11,525 nucleotides of DNA from a virus: the UHGV virus genome UHGV-1357462. The stretch is one strand, 5' to 3'. The notes beneath the pieces were generated by a model. The model searched no databases, was not told the DNA's origin, and worked only from the letters and a program-made list of their open reading frames with translations. A program made the translations under genes and the position numbers. Below, in pieces: positions 3,383 through 10,894 of this stretch. Each line of letters starts with the position of its first letter. Positions within the stretch are counted from its first letter, which is position 1.

Positions 3383-4129
3383 ATGCATCGTATAGACACG
3401 AAAACCGCGCAGAAGGATAAGTTCGGCGCGGGTAAGAACGGTTTTACCCGTGGTAACCCCCAGACAGGCACGCCTGCCACCGATCTGGATGATGACTACT
3501 TTGACATGTTGCAGGAAGAACTCTGCAGCGTGGTGGAGGCATCCGGTGCCAGTCTGGAGAAGGCGCGGCACGACCAACTGCTTACCGCGCTTCGTGCGCT
3601 GCTGTTAAGCCGCAAGAATCCGTTTGGCGATATCAAATCGGATGGCACGGTGAAAACGGCTCTCGAAAACCTTGGTTTGGGAGAAGGTGCTCCAGCTATT
3701 GGCGTTCCGTTCTTCTGGCCGTCCGCTGCAATGCCAAATACTGTAATCGACAGCTGGTCCAGTATGGTGTTTTTGAAGTTCAACGGCGCGAAATTCTCTG
3801 CCACTGATTATCCTGTGCTGGCGAAAGTGTTTCCTTCGCTGGTATTACCTGAAGCCCGCGGTGATTTCATTCGTATCTGGGATGACGGGCGAGGTGCAGA
3901 CGGTGGTCGCGAATTATTAAGCTGGCAGGAAGCTACAAACTTTTCTCAGTTTGCCGGGAATATAGGCGGAGGTGCGGGACACGCAATTAACTTTCATGAT
4001 GGCATCGCCGGAAATCAGCCAGGATTTTCACGATTTAATTTCACCAGTAACTCTGTGGGTGATGGTGTGAATTTTGTTGCTGTCAGACCGCGAAATATTG
4101 CATTTAACTTTCTGGTGAGGGCTAAATAA
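3383..4129 (+). CDS. Short tail fibre protein (constant N-terminus fused to the currently expressed variable C-terminus, Sc+Sv)
   Basis: 248-aa ORF. The N-terminus [46 protein letters not shown] is the conserved start of short fibres in Mu-tail-type prophages. Codons 93-101 (ALENLGLGE) coincide with the left inversion site. DNA becomes visibly AT-richer after that point. The stop overlaps the tfa start (TAATG). Confidence 0.85.
3660..3685. repeat. Left DNA-invertase crossover site (hix/gix/pix-like)
   Basis: ctctcgaaaaccTTggtttgggagaa. It matches the reverse complement of 5465-5490 at 21 of 26 positions, including a perfect 14-bp block (3672-3685 vs 5465-5478) and the same central TT dinucleotide. 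It has the AAACC-NN-GGTTT core typical of Hin/Gin/Cin/Pin sites. Confidence 0.8.
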
Positions 4130-4722
4130 TGAAACCTGTTTTTGATGAAAATGGGCTGGCTACAGTGCCGGGCGATATGCGTTGTTTTTATTATGATGCT
4201 GAAACATCTGAGTATACGGGCTGGTCTGATGAATATATTAATACTGGCGTAAGTATGCCCGCCTGTTCCACTGGTATTGACCCGGGCGAAAACATTCCGG
4301 GGAAAGTGGCAGTATTTACGGGTAAGGGATGGAGCCATGAAGAAGACCATCGCAATGAGACTGTTTACTCAACAGAAAATGGCGCAGCTGTTACAGTGGA
4401 TTATATCGGTGCCATCAAAGACGGTTATGTCACGCTTTCACCGTTAACGCCATACGATAAATGGGATGGTGAGAAATGGGTGACGGATACCGAGGCACAG
4501 CATAGCGCCGCAGTAGACGCGGCAGAAGCACAACGTCAGTCACTGATTGATACTGCAATGGCTTCCATTAGTCTGATTCAACTGAAATTGCAGGCCGGAC
4601 GGAAACTGACGCAGGCAGAAACAACCCGACTTAACGCCGTGCTGGATTACATTGACGCGGTGACGGTAACAGATACCAGCACCGCGCCGGATATCATCTG
4701 GCCTGAACTGCCGGAGGCGTAG
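4129..4722 (+). CDS. Tail fibre assembly protein (Tfa / gpU-like), expressed orientation
   Basis: 197-aa ORF coupled to the fibre gene. The C-terminus LNAVLDYIDAVTVTDTSTAPDIIWPELPEA is the hallmark tail-fibre-assembly chaperone C-terminus. Confidence 0.85.
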   Translation: MKPVFDENGLATVPGDMRCFYYDAETSEYTGWSDEYINTGVSMPACSTGIDPGENIPGKVAVFTGKGWSHEEDHRNETVYSTENGAAVTVDYIGAIKDGYVTLSPLTPYDKWDGEKWVTDTEAQHSAAVDAAEAQRQSLIDTAMASISLIQLKLQAGRKLTQAETTRLNAVLDYIDAVTVTDTSTAPDIIWPELPEA

Positions 4723-5113
4723 GCCATTCAATATCTGGCGCACTGGAAGTATCGACCAGCTCCAGTGCGTCCAGATAATCCAGCCACAAATTATATTGCG
4801 CCAGTTCCTCACCTTTCAGACGACCAATAGCCGCTTTACCAGGCCATTGCCTGCTGTTCATGTGCTCGTTGGCTTCATTAATAAGTTTTCCTTTTTTCAA
4901 CTCTGCCAATGCAATAAGGTTTTCTTTTGATAAAGGTGGTTGCTCTGTCAAAACCGGATATCCCTCCTGATTGCTGACTATTTTCATGCCATTATCCTGA
5001 CCATCCAGTAGTGACAGCCATTCATCCGTGGTTATCTCAACAGCATCTGAAGGTGCTTTATTTAAATCGGTAAAAAAACCATTTTCTTTTTGTGAATAGA
5101 AGTATCTGTCCAT
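4694..5113 (-). CDS. Alternative tail fibre assembly protein (Tfa' / gpU'-like), silent orientation
   Basis: 139-aa ORF. The N-terminus is MDRYFYSQKENGFF and the C-terminus is LWLDYLDALELVDTSSAPDIEWPTPP, the same family hallmark. It is convergent with the other tfa and overlaps it by 29 nt. It lies directly downstream of the Sv' cassette. Confidence 0.8.
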   Translation of the reverse strand: MDRYFYSQKENGFFTDLNKAPSDAVEITTDEWLSLLDGQDNGMKIVSNQEGYPVLTEQPPLSKENLIALAELKKGKLINEANEHMNSRQWPGKAAIGRLKGEELAQYNLWLDYLDALELVDTSSAPDIEWPTPPAVQAR

Positions 5114-5116
5114 TTA

Positions 5117-5464
5117 TCAATCTCCAAAAGCAATCCAGTAAGCAAAAGGATTTATTCCTTGCTCAGTCACAGATGACATCAGGGAAAATTGCGATGGTGA
5201 AACAGGTAATGCTGCAAAACTAACCATTGTTGACACACCTGACCGTGCATTATCGTACGATGCAACAACACAATAATTGGTATTGCTGAAAGATATCGGC
5301 AGGGTGATATTTACAGGTGAGCCTAATGGCCCTGATGCTGATATTCCCATTTGAATGATGGTTCCATCAGGCAATTTTCTCCAGCGATTAGAACTCGGAT
5401 TTCTTTTCCAGGCTGACATATCCGGTATCTGATTTTCTCCTGTGCCTACATCCCTTTTCGCCGC
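5117..5464 (-). CDS. Promoter-less alternative tail-fibre C-terminal cassette (Sv')
   Basis: The minus-strand frame is open through the right crossover site. The peptide ...NVGLGEAAKRDVGTGENQIPDMSAW... shares GLGE with the fibre at the left site. Inversion would therefore fuse fibre codons 1-101 to this cassette. The tracked Met at 5518 has no usable SD. Confidence 0.7.
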   Translation of the reverse strand, partial: AAKRDVGTGENQIPDMSAWKRNPSSNRWRKLPDGTIIQMGISASGPLGSPVNITLPISFSNTNYCVVASYDNARSGVSTMVSFAALPVSPSQFSLMSSVTEQGINPFAYWIAFGD

Positions 5465-5490
5465 TTCTCCCAAACCAACGTTTATGAAAA
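5465..5490. repeat. Right DNA-invertase crossover site (hix/gix/pix-like)
   Basis: ttctcccaaaccAAcgtttatgaaaa. It is the inverted partner of 3660-3685, lies 55 bp upstream of the invertase ATG, and resembles remembered hixL/gix sequences. Confidence 0.8.
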
Positions 5491-5544
5491 TGCAGAAATA
5501 ACGAGCAAATGGCATCATTCCTGCTTTTGTCAGGGAGATCTACC

Positions 5545-5901
5545 ATGCTTATTGGCTATGTACGTGTGTCAACAAATGACCAGAACACAGATCTACAGCG
5601 TAATGCGCTGAACTGTGCAGGATGCGAGCTGATTTTTGAAGACAAGATAAGCGGTACAAAGTCTGAAAGGCCGGGACTGAAAAAACTGCTCAGGACATTA
5701 TCGGAAGGTGACACTCTGGTTGTCTGGAAGCTGGATCGGCTGGGGCGTAGTATGCGGCATCTGGTCATTCTGGTTGAGGAGTTGCGCGAACGTGGCGTTA
5801 ATTTTCGCAGCCTAACGGATGCTATTGATATCAGCACGTCGATGGGGCGTTTTTTCTTTTATGTGATGGGGGCCTTGGCTGAAATTGAGTTTCAGGATTA
5901 A
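5545..5901 (+). pseudogene. pin: Serine DNA invertase, Gin/Pin/Cin/Hin family; 3'-truncated (catalytic domain only)
   Basis: MLIGYVRVSTNDQNTDLQRNAL...VVWKLDRLGRSM...GRFFFYVMGALAEIE is near-identical in pattern to Gin/Pin, with the catalytic Ser in YVRVSTNDQ. An SD (AGGGAG) lies 7 nt before ATG 5545. Family similarity stops at about nt 5889, followed by FQD-stop. Full-length family members are about 180-195 aa and carry a C-terminal HTH. No other frame continues the homology. Confidence 0.85.
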
Positions 5902-6062
5902 GCGATATCGTACTCACCCTTGGTCCCACCTAATAAATCTGAAGAACGGAAGCGCTGCCAGATGATGGTGGTGGCTACAATTATTCACACTCAATCTTCG
6001 GAGCAATCACGTACATCATAATGATGTTAGGAATACGGAGTTTAATGACTGTCCAGTGATGT

Positions 6063-6091
6063 AAAAAGAAACCCCGGCGTAGTAGCCGAGG
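6063..6091 (-). terminator. Rho-independent terminator of the protease gene
   Basis: On the minus strand the sequence reads CCTCGGC-TACTAC-GCCGGGG, a 7-bp stem with one G-U pair, followed by TTTCTTTTT. It lies 24 nt after the stop codon. Confidence 0.7.
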
Positions 6092-6114
6092 TCCTCAATC
6101 AGAAACTACAATAT

Positions 6115-7119
6115 TCACTGAGTGCCTTCATCTGGTTGCTCTGCTGGTAAGGTTCCAGCCTCTTCTTCAGTTTCCGCATGTTTTCCATCGCCTCCCTGGA
6201 CAGGTTCATCCCTTGGCGGTTCTGCTCTTCCTGAATTTTGGTCAGAGATTTCATCTCCTTCCTGAATTCTGCTGTTGTCATGGGAATCTTCCTCTGCGTT
6301 AGTTGTTTCATATTGTTTTTTAGGAGTTAAATCTTTAATCATCGGTTTGTCGAAGATAGAGATTTCGCCTGACGAAATCATTTCACCAAGAACTTCGTAC
6401 AGGTTGGCTGCAAAATCTGTAGGACTCTCAACATGGTTGAATAGTTCCCTCGCCTCTTTACGGTCTATCACAAAACCATGGGCTGGATATCCAGCGATCA
6501 ACTTGCCTAATGAGCTTTCCTTAAGATTTTTCGAGTGACTATTCAAACGTTCCCCATAGGAAAGCGCTATGTTCATTGCTCGCTGATGCTCCCCGAGTTT
6601 GATAGGGTCTATCTGTGAGGCCATCGGCGATATGATTGCTTCAGTAAGCTTAGCAGCAATATCTGCAGACATCTTTGTGCTAATTTGGTTTCTGTACTTT
6701 ATATCAAGTACGTATGATCTAAAGGTCGAAATAGCGCACTCTTTTATTTCATCAATCGCCGTTGCGATAACAAGGCCCGAGCTCAATTCGCCGATCTCAT
6801 CATTTTTCTTAAGTTGGATATCTAGAGGGCCAAGCTCACCCATATCACCAATCACGAGCTTATGAGCGGCGACAGCCATCAATGTTCCAGCACTTTTGCA
6901 AGGGCCAACAACTAGAACGGTGATGTGCTCATAGTTGTGTTGCAAAGCGCGGCCAATTCTATATCCTGCGCTGGGATCACCGCCATAGGTAGCGACGCAA
7001 AAAAGAACATTTTTTTGTAAACCATGGTTAGTTTTTCTTTCTTTAATCGCTTTGGTGATGTCGTGATGACCAGAGCGGTGAACATCGCCTATGTATACGT
7101 AAACGTCTGTATCTTGCAT
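6115..7119 (-). CDS. ClpP/SppA-fold serine protease (SDH-family Clp-fold proteinase-like) with an acidic low-complexity C-terminal tail
   Basis: 334-aa ORF with an SD (AGGGA) 5 nt before the ATG. The core FCVATYGGDPSAGYRIGRAL...ITVLVVGPCKSAGTLMAVAAHKLVIGDMGELGPLDIQL fits the remembered pattern T-x-GG...S-A-G-T...LGP-x-D-x-Q of S49/SDH Clp-fold peptidases. The last ~70 aa are rich in Glu, Asp, Gly, Pro and Gln. The family call comes from motif memory, not from a search. Confidence 0.65.
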   Translation of the reverse strand: MQDTDVYVYIGDVHRSGHHDITKAIKERKTNHGLQKNVLFCVATYGGDPSAGYRIGRALQHNYEHITVLVVGPCKSAGTLMAVAAHKLVIGDMGELGPLDIQLKKNDEIGELSSGLVIATAIDEIKECAISTFRSYVLDIKYRNQISTKMSADIAAKLTEAIISPMASQIDPIKLGEHQRAMNIALSYGERLNSHSKNLKESSLGKLIAGYPAHGFVIDRKEARELFNHVESPTDFAANLYEVLGEMISSGEISIFDKPMIKDLTPKKQYETTNAEEDSHDNSRIQEGDEISDQNSGRAEPPRDEPVQGGDGKHAETEEEAGTLPAEQPDEGTQ

Positions 7120-7359: not shown

Positions 7360-7427
7360 CTGGCTGGCGAACTTTCGATAGTGCGAGTATTGAATGATTT
7401 CCAGCCGTTACCGATTTTACGTGTTAA

Positions 7428-7676
7428 TTAGTGAACAAACCACTCGTCAGCAGATTCCCAGGTATCTTTCAGAGTCTCCTGAACAAAAGTTTTTGCAGAA
7501 TCCTTATCTGCGGTGCGTGTAACAGAAAGGCCATCGTTGCTGGTGGCTTTTACGATCACCTCTACATCGTCATAACGTTTACTGATGCGTCGGGTTAATT
7601 CTTCCTTTAACGCATCCACAGCACCGGTTGGCATTTTAGTCATTTTTTCTTTGGCTATGCAGATTTCAATACGCAT
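7428..7676 (-). CDS. dinI: DinI-family protein (DNA-damage-inducible, RecA modulator-like)
   Basis: The 82-aa product [40 protein letters not shown]...[16 protein letters not shown] parallels E. coli DinI (MRIEVTIAK...GAIDAL..EL.RRI...ETWESADDWFV). It has an SD (AGAGGGA) and a LexA-controlled promoter upstream. Confidence 0.9.
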
Positions 7677-7689
7677 AAAAGTCCCTCTA

Positions 7690-7709
7690 CACTGTGTTTG
7701 TATACAGTA
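7690..7709 (-). promoter_or_regulatory. LexA box 1 (SOS operator), between the -10 element and the SD of the dinI-like gene
   Basis: The minus strand reads TACTGTATACAAACACAGTG. This is CTGT-N8-ACAG (7692-7707), close to the consensus TACTGTATATATATACAGTA. Confidence 0.85.
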
Positions 7710-7712
7710 TTA

Positions 7713-7741
7713 TTTTTAACTGTATGAATAAACAGTGTCAA
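7713..7741 (-). promoter_or_regulatory. Sigma-70 promoter of the dinI-like gene
   Basis: On the minus strand there is TTGACA (7741-7736), a 17-nt spacer, then TAAAAA (7718-7713). The spacer is occupied by LexA box 2. Confidence 0.7.
7718..7737 (-). promoter_or_regulatory. LexA box 2 (SOS operator), filling the -35/-10 spacer
   Basis: The plus strand reads aaCTGTatgaataaACAGtg, which is CTGT-N8-ACAG at 7720-7735. Its centre is 28 bp from box 1. Confidence 0.85.
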
Positions 7742-7760
7742 TAGAACAAAGATTGCTGCA

Positions 7761-8178
7761 TGTACAAATGTTCTTTGGCTACAAATACACCTACTGATCA
7801 TGTTCTGCTATGCTCTGATACCTCCAAAATGTACAATCAGCGGCATGAATTTTTCTTTGTACATATGATTGTACATAATTAAAGAGACAACAATTATGAC
7901 AAGCCTTTTGGCCGCAGAGGTAGCGAAAAGAAGAACCTTTGCAATTATTTCTCACCCCAATAATTAAGTCCAAATTAAAGCTCTTTTACTCTTTCAAAAT
8001 CCTTTCAGTTAATTGAAGTTGAGCTATATAACTCATTTAAATACATTTGTTTATGTAGCTTCTTTAATTGAAAACTCTTTCATGTAACTTTAAATCGATC
8101 AGCTTGCTTTCATCAAAAACCTGTACATATGCTTGTACATAATGTACAAAACAGCAGAGGTGTTTTGCGATTTGTACA
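7761..8178. repeat. Two clusters of TGTACA(W)A repeats flanking the prfC-like core; candidate attP arm-type recombinase or RDF binding sites
   Basis: There are eight TGTACA hexamers, at 7761, 7830, 7858, 7870 | 8122, 8134, 8143, 8173, and I found none elsewhere in the window. A 22-bp direct repeat, tgtacatatgAttgtacataat (7858-7879) vs tgtacatatgCttgtacataat (8122-8143), has one mismatch. Confidence 0.6.
7896..7967 (+). other. prfC: Surrogate 5' end of prfC (RF3), 23 codons, containing the probable att core
   Basis: It translates as [23 protein letters not shown]-stop. E. coli PrfC starts [28 protein letters not shown], so similarity runs through ...ISHP (to about nt 7958) and then breaks. 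The fragment lies 220 bp upstream of the integrase on the same strand. Confidence 0.75.
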
Positions 8179-8187
8179 AGGTGAGTA

Positions 8188-9411
8188 ATGGCGCTGTCTG
8201 ATGCGTGGTTGCGTTCAGTCGTTGGAAAGGAACGTGATAAGGTTTTGGTTAAATCCGATCGTGATGGTCTGTCTGTCAGAGTATCACCGAAAGGTCGCGT
8301 AGTGTTCCAATATCGTTATCAATGGGCAGGGAAAGGTGAGCGTCTTGATATCGGAACTTACCCGGCAACTGGATTAAAAGAGGCCAGAGAAGAAGTTATC
8401 CGTCTTCGTGGTGAACTCGAGTCAAACCGTAATCCACGATTGGTCAAGCAGGCTGAAAAACGAAAAGCTACTGAAGCCATGACGGTAGAGTCTGTGATCC
8501 GTGCTTGGTATGAAGCATATTGTGTAAAAAATAAAAAAGGTTCTGAACAGATACTTCGCTCGTTTGAGCTGCACCTGTTCTCTAAAATCGGGAATATCCC
8601 TCACGATGCAGCTACATTGCATGATTGGTTAGAAGTCCTGGAGCCTCTTAGCACTAAGACTCCAGCAATAGCAGACCGATTGCTAATTAACGCAAAGCAG
8701 GCCCATGTCTGGGCGTATAAGAGAAAGCTCATTGAAACTCGCCCGCTGTCGGATATCACGGGTAAAGATATGGATATCCGTAAAGGTCAGAAGAAACGGT
8801 TTCTGACACATGATGAAATTAAAATCCTTTATGCTGCGATCGATGGTTCTCGAATGGTTCCTAAATACCGGGCCTTCATTAAACTATTGCTGCATTTTGG
8901 TTGCCGTAGTTCAGAGCTAATTACCGCCCGGGTGGACGATTTTGATTTCATTAATAAAGTATGGACTGTACCACCAGAACGACATAAGACAGGGGAGATA
9001 ACAGGCGAACCGCTAAAGCGGCCCATTATTGAACCGGTTGAAGAGCTTATAAAGTACGCTATCTCTATGAACAATGGTTCCGATATGCTTTTTACTAAGG
9101 AAGGAAGCAGGGAACCCGTTGGTCGGACATCATTGCAGTCGCTGCCTTACAATTTAATGCAGTACGCATGGCGGTGTTTAGGATATCAATTCCCTCATTG
9201 GTCTCTTCATGACTTGAGACGTACAGCTCGAACAAATTTTTCTGATCTTACTGCGCCTCATATCGCAGAAATTATGCTTGGTCATAAGCTGCCAGGGGTA
9301 TGGCAAGTTTATGATAAGAGCGATTATCTAGAAGAACAGCGTAAAGCTTACCTGGCATGGTGGAAGAGGGTTGAATCGATTGTTAATTGTACTATCTCTG
9401 ATTCAAACTGA
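8188..9411 (+). CDS. int: Tyrosine integrase, P4/SXT-like (DUF4102 N-terminal arm-binding domain plus catalytic domain)
   Basis: 407-aa ORF. The N-terminus LSDAWLRSV...DGLSVRVSPKGRVVFQYRYQWAGKGERLDIGTYPATGLKEAREE is the DUF4102 pattern. Catalytic signatures are present: FGCRSSEL (Arg), WSLHDLRRTART (H-x-x-R) and MLGHK...WQVYDKS (His...Tyr). Confidence 0.9.
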   Translation: MALSDAWLRSVVGKERDKVLVKSDRDGLSVRVSPKGRVVFQYRYQWAGKGERLDIGTYPATGLKEAREEVIRLRGELESNRNPRLVKQAEKRKATEAMTVESVIRAWYEAYCVKNKKGSEQILRSFELHLFSKIGNIPHDAATLHDWLEVLEPLSTKTPAIADRLLINAKQAHVWAYKRKLIETRPLSDITGKDMDIRKGQKKRFLTHDEIKILYAAIDGSRMVPKYRAFIKLLLHFGCRSSELITARVDDFDFINKVWTVPPERHKTGEITGEPLKRPIIEPVEELIKYAISMNNGSDMLFTKEGSREPVGRTSLQSLPYNLMQYAWRCLGYQFPHWSLHDLRRTARTNFSDLTAPHIAEIMLGHKLPGVWQVYDKSDYLEEQRKAYLAWWKRVESIVNCTISDSN

Positions 9412-9697
9412 CGGTTTGTATCACCTGAACATAACCAAATCTCCTAGCACACTTTGAGCGAGATGTGAGCGTTAAGTTTACGCCATTGTGTTGACATAAG
9501 AGGGGGGCGGGTATCGATATCATCACTATCCCTATGCCCCTAAATCGCTCCTGCCATTTGATAAATGCAGATGTTTACCACCAAATGTTTTTGATACTAT
9601 AGGTCGATTCATGATTTACCTAGAAACTTAGTTGTAACGAAAACTTCTTAACGGACACTATCTGGATAAAGTTAGTTTTTTATTTAAGAGGGTTAAC

Positions 9698-10417
9698 ATG
9701 TCAAAGTTAAAAAATGAACCATTAGTAAGGGTATCAGAAGAAGACGGAATAGAAATAAGGAAGATCCAATATCCAGATAATACGATAGAAAGAATTTATA
9801 AGCAGAAAGGTGTAATATTACCACGAATACCTTTAAAAGGCCGCTTTGTAGAACAATATGTGGCCTTACAGTTGCTTGATAAAGATCTTCGGAATGTTAT
9901 TGGTTGGGAGAATATAATAAAAAACATTTGTAATAACATTAATAAAGAACAACACTTTATTTATCCGGATTTAGAAAAGAATCTAATATTAAAGTCTTTA
10001 TTTATATCAAAAGTTGTTACTTACGGTAAGTGTTTTACAGAGGCGAAAGGGCGTCGATTCACATTGCAGAGAAAGCATGTGCCAGAAAAATACAGAGATT
10101 TACATGATTCTATTATGAATGTTAGACATAACTTTGCTGCCCATAAAGGTGAATTCGAATATGATCAATGTGGCTTGGTTTTAATATTGCCGGGGACCAA
10201 GAAGAAAAGGTACTATCATATTTTTTCAGAGCTCAATCAAATAAATTACGGTAATAATGAGGAAGATGATGAACGTTTTTTTATGTTATATGATTCACTG
10301 CGTGAAGTCATTAAAGAAAAACAAGATAAATTAATTGATAAAATATACGCTGAAAAGATTCATACTCAAACAATGGAGTATTGGTTGAGCCGAGCAGGAA
10401 AAGAAACAGAGATTTAA
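9698..10417 (+). CDS. Orphan hypothetical protein, 239 aa, very AT-rich; possible HEPN-like (R-x5-H) abortive-infection or exclusion protein
   Basis: It is an isolated ORF with an SD (AAGAGGG, 9686-9692) and ~280-bp non-coding flanks. I recognise no family. The motif V-R143-H-N-F-A-A-H149 (nt 10124-10144) is present. The composition contrasts strongly with the phage backbone. Confidence 0.6.
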   Translation: MSKLKNEPLVRVSEEDGIEIRKIQYPDNTIERIYKQKGVILPRIPLKGRFVEQYVALQLLDKDLRNVIGWENIIKNICNNINKEQHFIYPDLEKNLILKSLFISKVVTYGKCFTEAKGRRFTLQRKHVPEKYRDLHDSIMNVRHNFAAHKGEFEYDQCGLVLILPGTKKKRYYHIFSELNQINYGNNEEDDERFFMLYDSLREVIKEKQDKLIDKIYAEKIHTQTMEYWLSRAGKETEI

Positions 10418-10613
10418 TTTGTTCAGTATATAAAAGCTAATTTTTAAGGAGTAATTTTAAGATGATTAAAGCTGATTACATTGCGATAGGTACTCTACGA
10501 CTAACTTTTCAACAAGATTAAGGGGGTAATCAATTTTATTTGTATCAATGGTATGACATTTCTTGGTGATAATGTTTTGATCTTATCGATTCATGTCATA
10601 TGGTCATTGGTGA

Positions 10614-10639
10614 CGTCCGCTCTTGGTAAAGAGTGGACG
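10614..10639. other. Stem-loop between the convergent orf239 and xis
   Basis: cgtccgctctt-ggta-aagagtggacg forms an 11-bp stem with one G-U pair. No U-tract follows on either strand, so it is not a canonical intrinsic terminator. Confidence 0.4.
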
Positions 10640-10699
10640 CTCAGATTAGGTTTGGCATCTAAGCATAGATGTGTCAGCTCACATCTAAGCTAATACATA

Positions 10700-10894
10700 T
10701 TACTCAATCACTCCCGCAAATCTGTAAATCTTGTGTGATGCCCATTTATTTGGGCAGGATTTAATATCAGGATCTGGAAAGTCAGGCCTGTATTTCTGAC
10801 CAGTTCTCCTGTTTACGCTGTTCCAGCGAAGAACTGTCGATACTGAAACACCACAGAAATCGGCGACTTGTTTAGTTGTCATTAAGTTGTTCAT
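10700..10894 (-). CDS. xis: AlpA-family excisionase / recombination directionality factor (HTH)
   Basis: The 64-aa product has MTTKQVADFCGVSVSTVLRWNS...FPDPD...NKWASHKIYRF, which fits the AlpA/Xis winged-helix pattern (l..keva.l.gvS.sTv.rW....FP.P....rW). Its start overlaps the upstream stop (TAATG). This RDF type typically partners with P4-like integrases. Confidence 0.8.
   Translation of the reverse strand: MNNLMTTKQVADFCGVSVSTVLRWNSVNRRTGQKYRPDFPDPDIKSCPNKWASHKIYRFAGVIE

Follow-up and report, generated by a model that had tools for sequence, protein, structure and literature searches.

The 11,525-base stretch of DNA analysed here (the window; virus genome UHGV-1357462) is a lambdoid Escherichia coli phage in its unintegrated (attP) form, and its region 7760-8179 is the attachment site for insertion into the 5′ end of the host gene prfC. 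Within this region lie eight copies of the hexamer TGTACA, four on either side of the crossover core. Sequence comparison makes it likely that these repeats are arm-type sites read by the phage integrase (Int), whose gene begins immediately to their right.

The eight copies start at 7761, 7830, 7858, 7870, 8122, 8134, 8143 and 8173, and the hexamer occurs nowhere else in the window, exactly as had been noticed in an earlier reading made from the sequence alone. Dinucleotide shuffles of the whole window held 2.45 copies on average, and eight or more were found in none of 200. As G+C amounts to 33% in the AT-rich att region, compared with 48% over the window, positions 7677-8187 were also shuffled separately. 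In 20,000 dinucleotide shuffles of this 511-bp region the mean was 0.30 and the maximum 4; eight observed copies correspond to a Poisson probability of about 1e-9, so that the motif enrichment which the sequence-only reading had left to be checked is clear. The same reading had described a 22-bp double unit occurring twice with one mismatch. The 22-mers at 7858-7879 and 8122-8143 do differ at a single position, and the direct repeat can be extended to 35 nt at 80% identity, with a start-to-start distance of 264 bp.

The consensus first proposed, TGTACA(W)A, could be refined: the oriented 8-mer TTGTACAT describes the sites better, six of the eight being exact and two having one mismatch. Read in this way, the left (P) arm has the orientation - - + + and the right (P′) arm + + - followed by an ambiguous site. 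The P arm carries two inverted, exact copies of TTGTACAT on the minus strand, the distal one at 7760-7767 and another at 7829-7836, and then a double unit on the plus strand consisting of TTGTACAT at 7857-7864 and, 12 bp further on, TTGTACAT followed by AAT at 7869-7876. The hexamer at 7830 belongs to a perfect 11-nt inverted copy of that at 7870 (7866-7876). The P′ arm begins with a double unit on the plus strand, CTGTACAT at 8121-8128, which is kept in all relatives, and TTGTACAT followed by AAT at 8133-8140, again 12 bp after the first copy. An inverted site on the minus strand follows at 8142-8149; the hexamers at 8134 and 8143 jointly form the 17-nt palindrome TTGTACATAATGTACAA. The int-proximal site at 8172-8179 (TTGTACAA) adjoins the Shine-Dalgarno sequence AGGTGA and is an inverted copy, judging from relatives. 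Its hexamer (8173-8178) has its first base at -15 and ends 9 nt from the int ATG at 8188, which bears out the earlier placing of the final copy shortly before this start. The whole right-arm cluster spans -66 to -15 relative to int.

The position of the core was obtained from lysogens. At attL, the host prfC 5′ end reads ...TTTGCC-ATTATTTCTCACCCC-AATAATTAAG... and is followed by the right arm and int. At attR the order is dinI, left arm, phage-donated ATG (7897), core and the remainder of prfC, and lysogen records annotate the donated ATG as the start of prfC. The two junctions, attL (L003) and attR (L004), thus place a 15-bp crossover core at 7944-7958 (ATTATTTCTCACCCC), where attP and host prfC are identical and strands are exchanged, between the two TGTACA clusters; in GenBank, the entries for Stx2c phages label a 14-bp stretch, ATTATTTCTCACCC, as 'duplication due to insertion'. 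The phage-donated prfC 5′ end (7897-7968, plus strand) is fused in frame to host prfC after integration. The core itself contains no TGTACA, so the repeat is distinct from the core as well as over-represented; four copies lie 78-190 bp to the left of the core centre and four 171-222 bp to the right. From the core end at 7958, int, which starts at 8188 on the plus strand, reads away. The likeness to the P and P′ arms of an attP that had been suggested from the layout is therefore upheld by the lysogen junctions.

The integrase (8188-9411, plus strand, 407 aa) is a tyrosine recombinase with an N-terminal Arm-DNA-bind_3 domain (Pfam, aa 3-90, E=2.1e-16), a central domain and a catalytic domain. 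Its residues 1-80 and 1-96 align with the solved arm-binding domains of the HPI/HAI7 integrases, 3JTZ and 3JU0 (E=1.4e-6 and 2.6e-4, respectively), and in related integrases the N-terminal domain binds accessory arm sites. In all TGTACA-bearing relatives, conservation of this domain exceeds that of the protein as a whole: residues 1-60 of the integrases of two such contigs are 63% (L181) and 68% (L162) identical to those of the window, against 37% and 39% overall. The additional conservation fits an unchanged DNA target.

Relatives retrieved by integrase homology alone, from Trabulsiella, Pantoea, Symbiopectobacterium, Serratia and the Moraxella phage Mcat16, were examined for the repeat. The four enterobacterial elements (integrase identity 83% for Trabulsiella and Pantoea, 65% for Symbiopectobacterium and 61% for Serratia) are all inserted at the same position in prfC. 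Each has TGTACA-N6-TGTACA about 55-73 bp before the int ATG and an extra copy at -15 to -21, and the remainder of the right arm is unalignable with the window. In Mcat16 (integrase 41%) tgTGTACAtaattgTGTACAtaat stands immediately before int, so that a TGTACA pair with 12-bp spacing is present, without the int-proximal copy; the end of the Mcat22 record is host DNA. Read on the opposite strand, the int-proximal copy of the TGTACA group agrees with the consensus for the second member of the pair (ctgTGTACAtaatt), which means that this group also has the pattern -> -> ... <-. In six of these lineages the core and the int ATG are separated by 228-235 bp, and in L181 two TGTACA pairs lie 262 bp apart, compared with 264 bp in the window. 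Among 25 distinct right arms of E. coli phages (88-100% identical), none of the 24 TGTACA columns varies, whereas 54 of the 205 other non-coding columns do (Fisher p=0.0016).

The reverse test was to scan IMG/VR for TGTACA-N6-TGTACATAA, which matched at least 120 contigs. Among the 120 matches listed, 24 encode a relative of Int (26-99% identity), and these relatives all start 20-80 bp downstream of the TGTACA pair in the same orientation. In the other 96 no relative was found by tblastn; a profile search added only L188, a degenerate relative of L181, so that 95 of the 120 are without a related integrase. The matches of this kind that were inspected are chance matches or unrelated arrays, the scan with a degenerate pattern being noisy; the unrelated ones comprise a coding repeat (L160/L178), an iteron-like array (L100) and the attP of another phage (L106). 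In L106, an unrelated viral contig, TGTACA clusters flank a tRNA-like core at 5229-5588, and the integrase, which reads toward the site (5603-6763, minus strand, 386 aa), is of a different tyrosine type with a zinc-ribbon N-terminus; this is apparently an independent use of the hexamer. L100 has eight TGTACA copies, mostly cgTGTACA, at 4456-4747 upstream of an open reading frame (ORF) for an 891-aa primase/helicase-like protein. This array looks like the iterons of a replication origin, unrelated to integration.

In sister clades of the integrase the arrangement is retained with a changed hexamer. The Salmonella phage SPN3UB and the Klebsiella phage Kpn_R1 (integrase 46%) have a 12-bp pair of GTGTCCA on each arm, about 235 bp apart, with the order -> -> <- <- before int. 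Sf101 (33%) has TGTACC, the pairs being 256 bp apart; MagusPhagus (34%) has TGTACC or TGACC, ENT39118 (30%) AGTACA and the P27-like phage phi345 (31%) TGTACA, GGTAC or AGTAC, in each case on both arms. SPN3UB and Kpn_R1, which are Gifsy-like, resemble the window in that the P arm holds a donated 5′ end of a translational GTPase gene, each arm has its 12-bp pair and int reads away from the core. They differ in the repeat, in a target that is lepA-like rather than prfC, and in an extra LexA box upstream of int. In their attP (2190-2500 in SPN3UB, L093, and the same coordinates in Kpn_R1, L094) the donated ORF is a lepA 5′ end (MKNIRNFSIIAHID*), the crossover falls at the equivalent P-loop-coding position of this paralogous GTPase gene, and the LexA box is at about 2380-2397. 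A more speculative reading is that the wider integrase clade has kept one GTAC-core arm code and an arm geometry of about 235-265 bp while retargeting between the P-loop-coding 5′ ends of paralogous translational GTPase genes (prfC and lepA).

The GTGTCCA clade also differs in the strands of the N-terminal domain, with W and F in place of the S and Q of the TGTACA group: GLSVR becomes GLWVR and FQYRY becomes FFYRF, at two positions otherwise invariant among the aligned TGTACA-bearing relatives. The pairing of S29W and Q41F with the change from TGTACA to TGTCCA was considered as proof of the reader. It was downgraded because of an exception, the integrase in L222 described below; it also rests on a single switch. 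As to the covariation of repeat and integrase that the sequence-only reading had recommended looking for, the repeat is conserved with the integrase lineage and changes with it, but covariation at the level of residues is not clean. The central proposal of that reading, arm-type sites for the integrase N-terminal domain, is supported by the Arm-DNA-bind_3 domain, by conservation of the motif together with int and by the change of hexamer in the sister clades.

Several observations weigh against integrase arm sites. The Stx2a-phage integrase in L222 shares the F-F strand residues of the GTGTCCA group yet is accompanied by GTGTACA repeats. Most relatives carry a convergent gene for a small helix-turn-helix (HTH) protein, resembling an excisionase (Xis), beside int, and this is a possible element-encoded partner for the repeats. 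No match to the integration host factor (IHF) consensus WATCAANNNNTTR with up to one mismatch was found in 7677-8187, although the right-arm sites are 170-220 bp from the core. With no σ70-like promoter predicted over either double unit, autoregulation by Int is left without a located target. The left arm is of no help: from about 7750 to the core it is near-invariant among E. coli phages and lysogens (L001, L002, L004 and L226-L230), the right arms of which differ by up to 12%. The available left-arm variants are 96-100% identical to the window with few differences between 7750 and the core, which makes conservation there uninformative; left-side substitutions cluster further left, in the dinI promoter region. 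Either a constraint imposed by the donated prfC promoter and 5′ end or a recent spread could explain the invariance.

The small HTH gene raises the alternative that TGTACA marks the sites of the excisionase, which would bend the arms and repress int. The window encodes such a protein of 64 aa (10700-10894, minus strand), annotated as excisionase in phage 2H10, with weak matches to HTH_17/MerR that are all under the Pfam cut-off. A convergent Xis-like gene accompanies int in most relatives, and the recombination directionality factors (RDFs) of KplE1 and P4 bind beside int promoters and repress them. In the lambda paradigm RDF sites are restricted to a single arm, where they separate the core from the Int arm sites. 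TGTACA, in contrast, occurs in equivalent double units on both arms. It is, moreover, unchanged where Xis has diverged or is undetectable. The Xis homologues, which adjoin int, are 84-89% identical in close relatives, 52% in Symbiopectobacterium and 44% in Serratia (L008). Further out no homologue is detectable, and L136, L158, L127 and Mcat16 show no evident HTH ORF next to int.

A separate direct repeat, found on one arm only, does change with the Xis lineage. In the window it consists of four copies of CTTTCA on the plus strand of the P′ arm (7991, 8002, 8077 and 8107; 7991-8112), between the core and the TGTACA cluster. Its last three copies have counterparts at equivalent positions in L006, and two of those in L007 and L009. 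CTTTCA is replaced by AAAACCCCC in Serratia and by CCAAGACA in L136, L158 and L127, the repeats being located at 3800-3930 in L006, L007 and L009, at 3790-3870 in L008 and upstream of int in the other three. Each sub-lineage has its own direct repeat on the int-proximal arm while TGTACA stays fixed. Judged by confinement to one arm, position in the interval between core and arm sites and specificity for the RDF lineage, TGTACA fails as an RDF site and CTTTCA fits. The CTTTCA repeats are thus candidate Xis sites, and it is improbable that the excisionase is what reads TGTACA. The sequence-only reading had allowed for Int, the RDF or both; the Int part is supported, and the RDF part has become less likely with a motif that is on both arms and persists where Xis is undetectable.

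As the hexamer is palindromic and both double units lie upstream of an ORF start, the repeats could instead be operators of a host factor or of an unseen phage repressor controlling the int and donated prfC promoters. TyrR would be an example: its box, an element of host regulon promoters, has the consensus TGTAAA-N6-TTTACA, from which the 18-bp dyad of the double unit deviates at two positions. The motif, however, follows the integrase gene from Enterobacterales to Moraxella and uncultured viral contigs, and the hexamer is absent from the other 11 kb of the phage window. The single and inverted copies misfit an 18-bp box, four of the eight copies being outside such a dyad, and the sister clades have non-palindromic direct repeats (GTGTCCA and TGTACC) at the same places. 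Operators of this kind are consequently highly unlikely. The TyrR box in particular was rejected for its two mismatches, the four copies outside the dyad and the presence of the motif with int in Moraxella and other, unrelated hosts. A LexA box (CTGT-N8-ACAG) was likewise rejected, since none of the eight sites fits it.

The position of the right cluster bears on the expression of int. The cluster occupies the 5′ flank of the gene and its last copy adjoins the Shine-Dalgarno sequence, so that occupancy by Int should reduce int transcription. By analogy with KplE1 IntS, for which this has been shown, and P4 Int, for which it is reported, Int bound to the right cluster probably does limit transcription of its own gene, and the same two systems make it plausible that it controls the donated prfC promoter as well. 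The CATAAT at 7874-7879, which the sequence-only reading had taken for the likely promoter region of the prfC surrogate, is indeed present. A consensus promoter scan, however, found no plus-strand σ70-like promoter at either of the double units, so that CATAAT as a promoter amounts to an interpretation of the letters and not to a result. No terminator was predicted between the donated prfC start and int. Transcription might therefore run through into int, coming from the left arm when the phage is free and from the host prfC promoter when it is integrated. A search of Rfam gave no RNA family in the window.

A duplicated promoter could in principle account for the 22-bp unit, with TGTACATAAT as the -10 element, one copy serving the donated prfC and the other int, and no dedicated binding protein. 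TGTACATAAT is kept on both arms of the window and in all but one of the five relatives identified through homology, the exception being L008 with TAAC; several relatives have it 20-30 bp ahead of the int ATG. It provides a -10-like CATAAT without a -35, however, in keeping with the negative scan, and a σ70 element would not switch to TGTCCA or TGTACC between clades. The copies at 7761, 7830 and 8143, the copy adjacent to the ribosome-binding site and the inverted copies would all be left unexplained. A bare promoter module is accordingly extremely unlikely.

A more novel idea, which we regard as rather unlikely, combines promoters with the integrase: the two double units would be Int-controlled promoter/operator cassettes that swap partners on integration. 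Were this so, transcription of the free phage from the left cassette and the donated prfC start would continue across the arm into int. Once the phage is integrated, this cassette would instead drive host prfC (release factor 3), with int now read from the host prfC promoter, so that Int occupancy would set both its own level and the release-factor-3 level of the lysogen.

With TGTACA as integrase arm sites, the following scheme can be proposed. The Arm-DNA-bind_3 domain of the heterobivalent tyrosine integrase would read the TTGTACAT units, and the core at 7944-7958 would be handled by its C-terminal domains. On each arm there is a direct pair with 12-bp spacing and two further, inverted copies, with the pairs 264 bp apart. 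By bridging arm and core sites, Int would fold the attP of about 420 bp into an integrative intasome. Xis, bound to the CTTTCA repeats on one arm, would probably help the folding during excision, for which it would remodel the right arm.

The phage belongs to a common group. Over 7400-9500 its identity is 97% with Escherichia phage 2H10 and 96% with phage cdtI, and the int side of this stretch has matches in many Stx1a, Stx2a and Stx2c converting phages. The int/att region is matched by prophages in about one third of complete E. coli genomes (1,866 of 5,426), and about 693 E. coli records hold the full left arm fused to prfC. Integration of E. coli prophages into prfC is well recognised, and the prophages inserted there include Stx1a, Stx2a, Stx2c and Cdt-I converting phages.

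To the left of the att region is the gene for DinI (7428-7676, minus strand). Two LexA boxes (CTGT-N8-ACAG) at 7692-7707 and 7720-7735, upstream of dinI and directly left of the attP left arm, bracket its σ70-like minus-strand promoter (7741..7712), which suggests that the prophage DinI is probably SOS-induced. Between dinI and an invertase remnant, an ORF of 334 aa (6115-7119, minus strand) has a weak, sub-cut-off Pfam match to ClpP-like SDH-type serine proteinases; its counterpart adjoins dinI at attR in E. coli AMSHJX01 and is called an SDH family Clp fold serine proteinase in RefSeq. Located at the end of the prophage, the gene may serve as cargo or in defence. The tail-fibre cassette at 4129-5901 resembles an invertible segment, with opposed tail-fibre-assembly genes (4129-4722, plus strand, and 4694-5113, minus strand), an ORF for a tail-fibre C-terminus (5117-5518, minus strand) and a resolvase/invertase ORF (5509-5901) of only 130 aa, apparently truncated. 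On the other side, an AT-rich stretch of about 1.3 kb (9412-10699) separates int from xis and contains an unannotated ORF of 239 aa (9698-10417) with no Pfam match. Since xis adjoins the int 3′ end in Trabulsiella, Pantoea, Serratia and Symbiopectobacterium, this stretch looks like a moron inside the int-xis module.

Among the papers searched, none was found linking TGTACA to arm-type sites or to the attP of these phages, and the sites are not annotated in public sequence records. The phage, the prfC integration site and the concept of arm sites are already established, and the general view of integrase function is unchanged: the finding is the arrangement of lambda and KplE1/P4 in a P4/SXT-type family at a protein-coding target. 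It adds a defined attP map of toxin-converting prophages that form a very common group, and a 12-bp double unit with a GTAC core, present on both arms 235-265 bp apart, as a signature shared within a wide integrase clade. Together the arm sites, the core and the likely Xis sites define a minimal attP of about 420 bp, useful for studies of prophage stability and excision and for integration vectors. The double unit could also be used to delimit the att sites of unannotated prophages and islands with P4/SXT-type integrases.

Among known systems, lambda offers one parallel. Its integrase is also heterobivalent with an N-terminal arm-binding domain, and its arm-type sites (P1, P2 and P′1-P′3), which are needed for building the intasome, are a short repeat unrelated to the core on both flanks, with close copies (9-12 bp) on the int-proximal arm. 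The window differs in having the Arm-DNA-bind_3 domain (P4/SXT type) instead of the lambda-type domain, the motif TTGTACAT, an attP of about 420 bp instead of about 240 bp, and a nearest right-arm site about 170 bp from the core. In addition, its int is transcribed away from attP from inside the arm, and no IHF consensus is detectable.

Another is found in KplE1 (CPS-53, with IntS/TorI) and P4 (Int/Vis), where the promoter of the integrase gene lies within the attachment site. There too int adjoins the core and is transcribed away from it. The sequence of elements proposed for the window, with RDF sites next to the core, then P′ arm sites and then int, is the one mapped experimentally in KplE1 attL. 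IntS and TorI both repress intS, the autorepression having been shown by experiment, and a similar situation has been noted for P4. The P′ sites of KplE1 share TAAA and its target is the argW tRNA gene, whereas the window has TGTACA and a protein-coding 5′ end. The HPI/HAI7 integrases (3JTZ, 3RMP and 3JU0) have solved arm-binding domains that align with the N-terminus of the present integrase; the match is distant (E=1e-6 over about 80 residues), and their targets are tRNA genes.

The SXT/R391 elements share the target itself. They too are inserted into the prfC 5′ end, and the integrase of the window falls into the broad AB-domain subgroup 'IntSXT'. According to Hochhut and Waldor (1999), SXT reportedly also provides prfC with a new promoter and a new 5′ coding end. 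Unlike the window, however, SXT belongs to a conjugative element and not to a phage.

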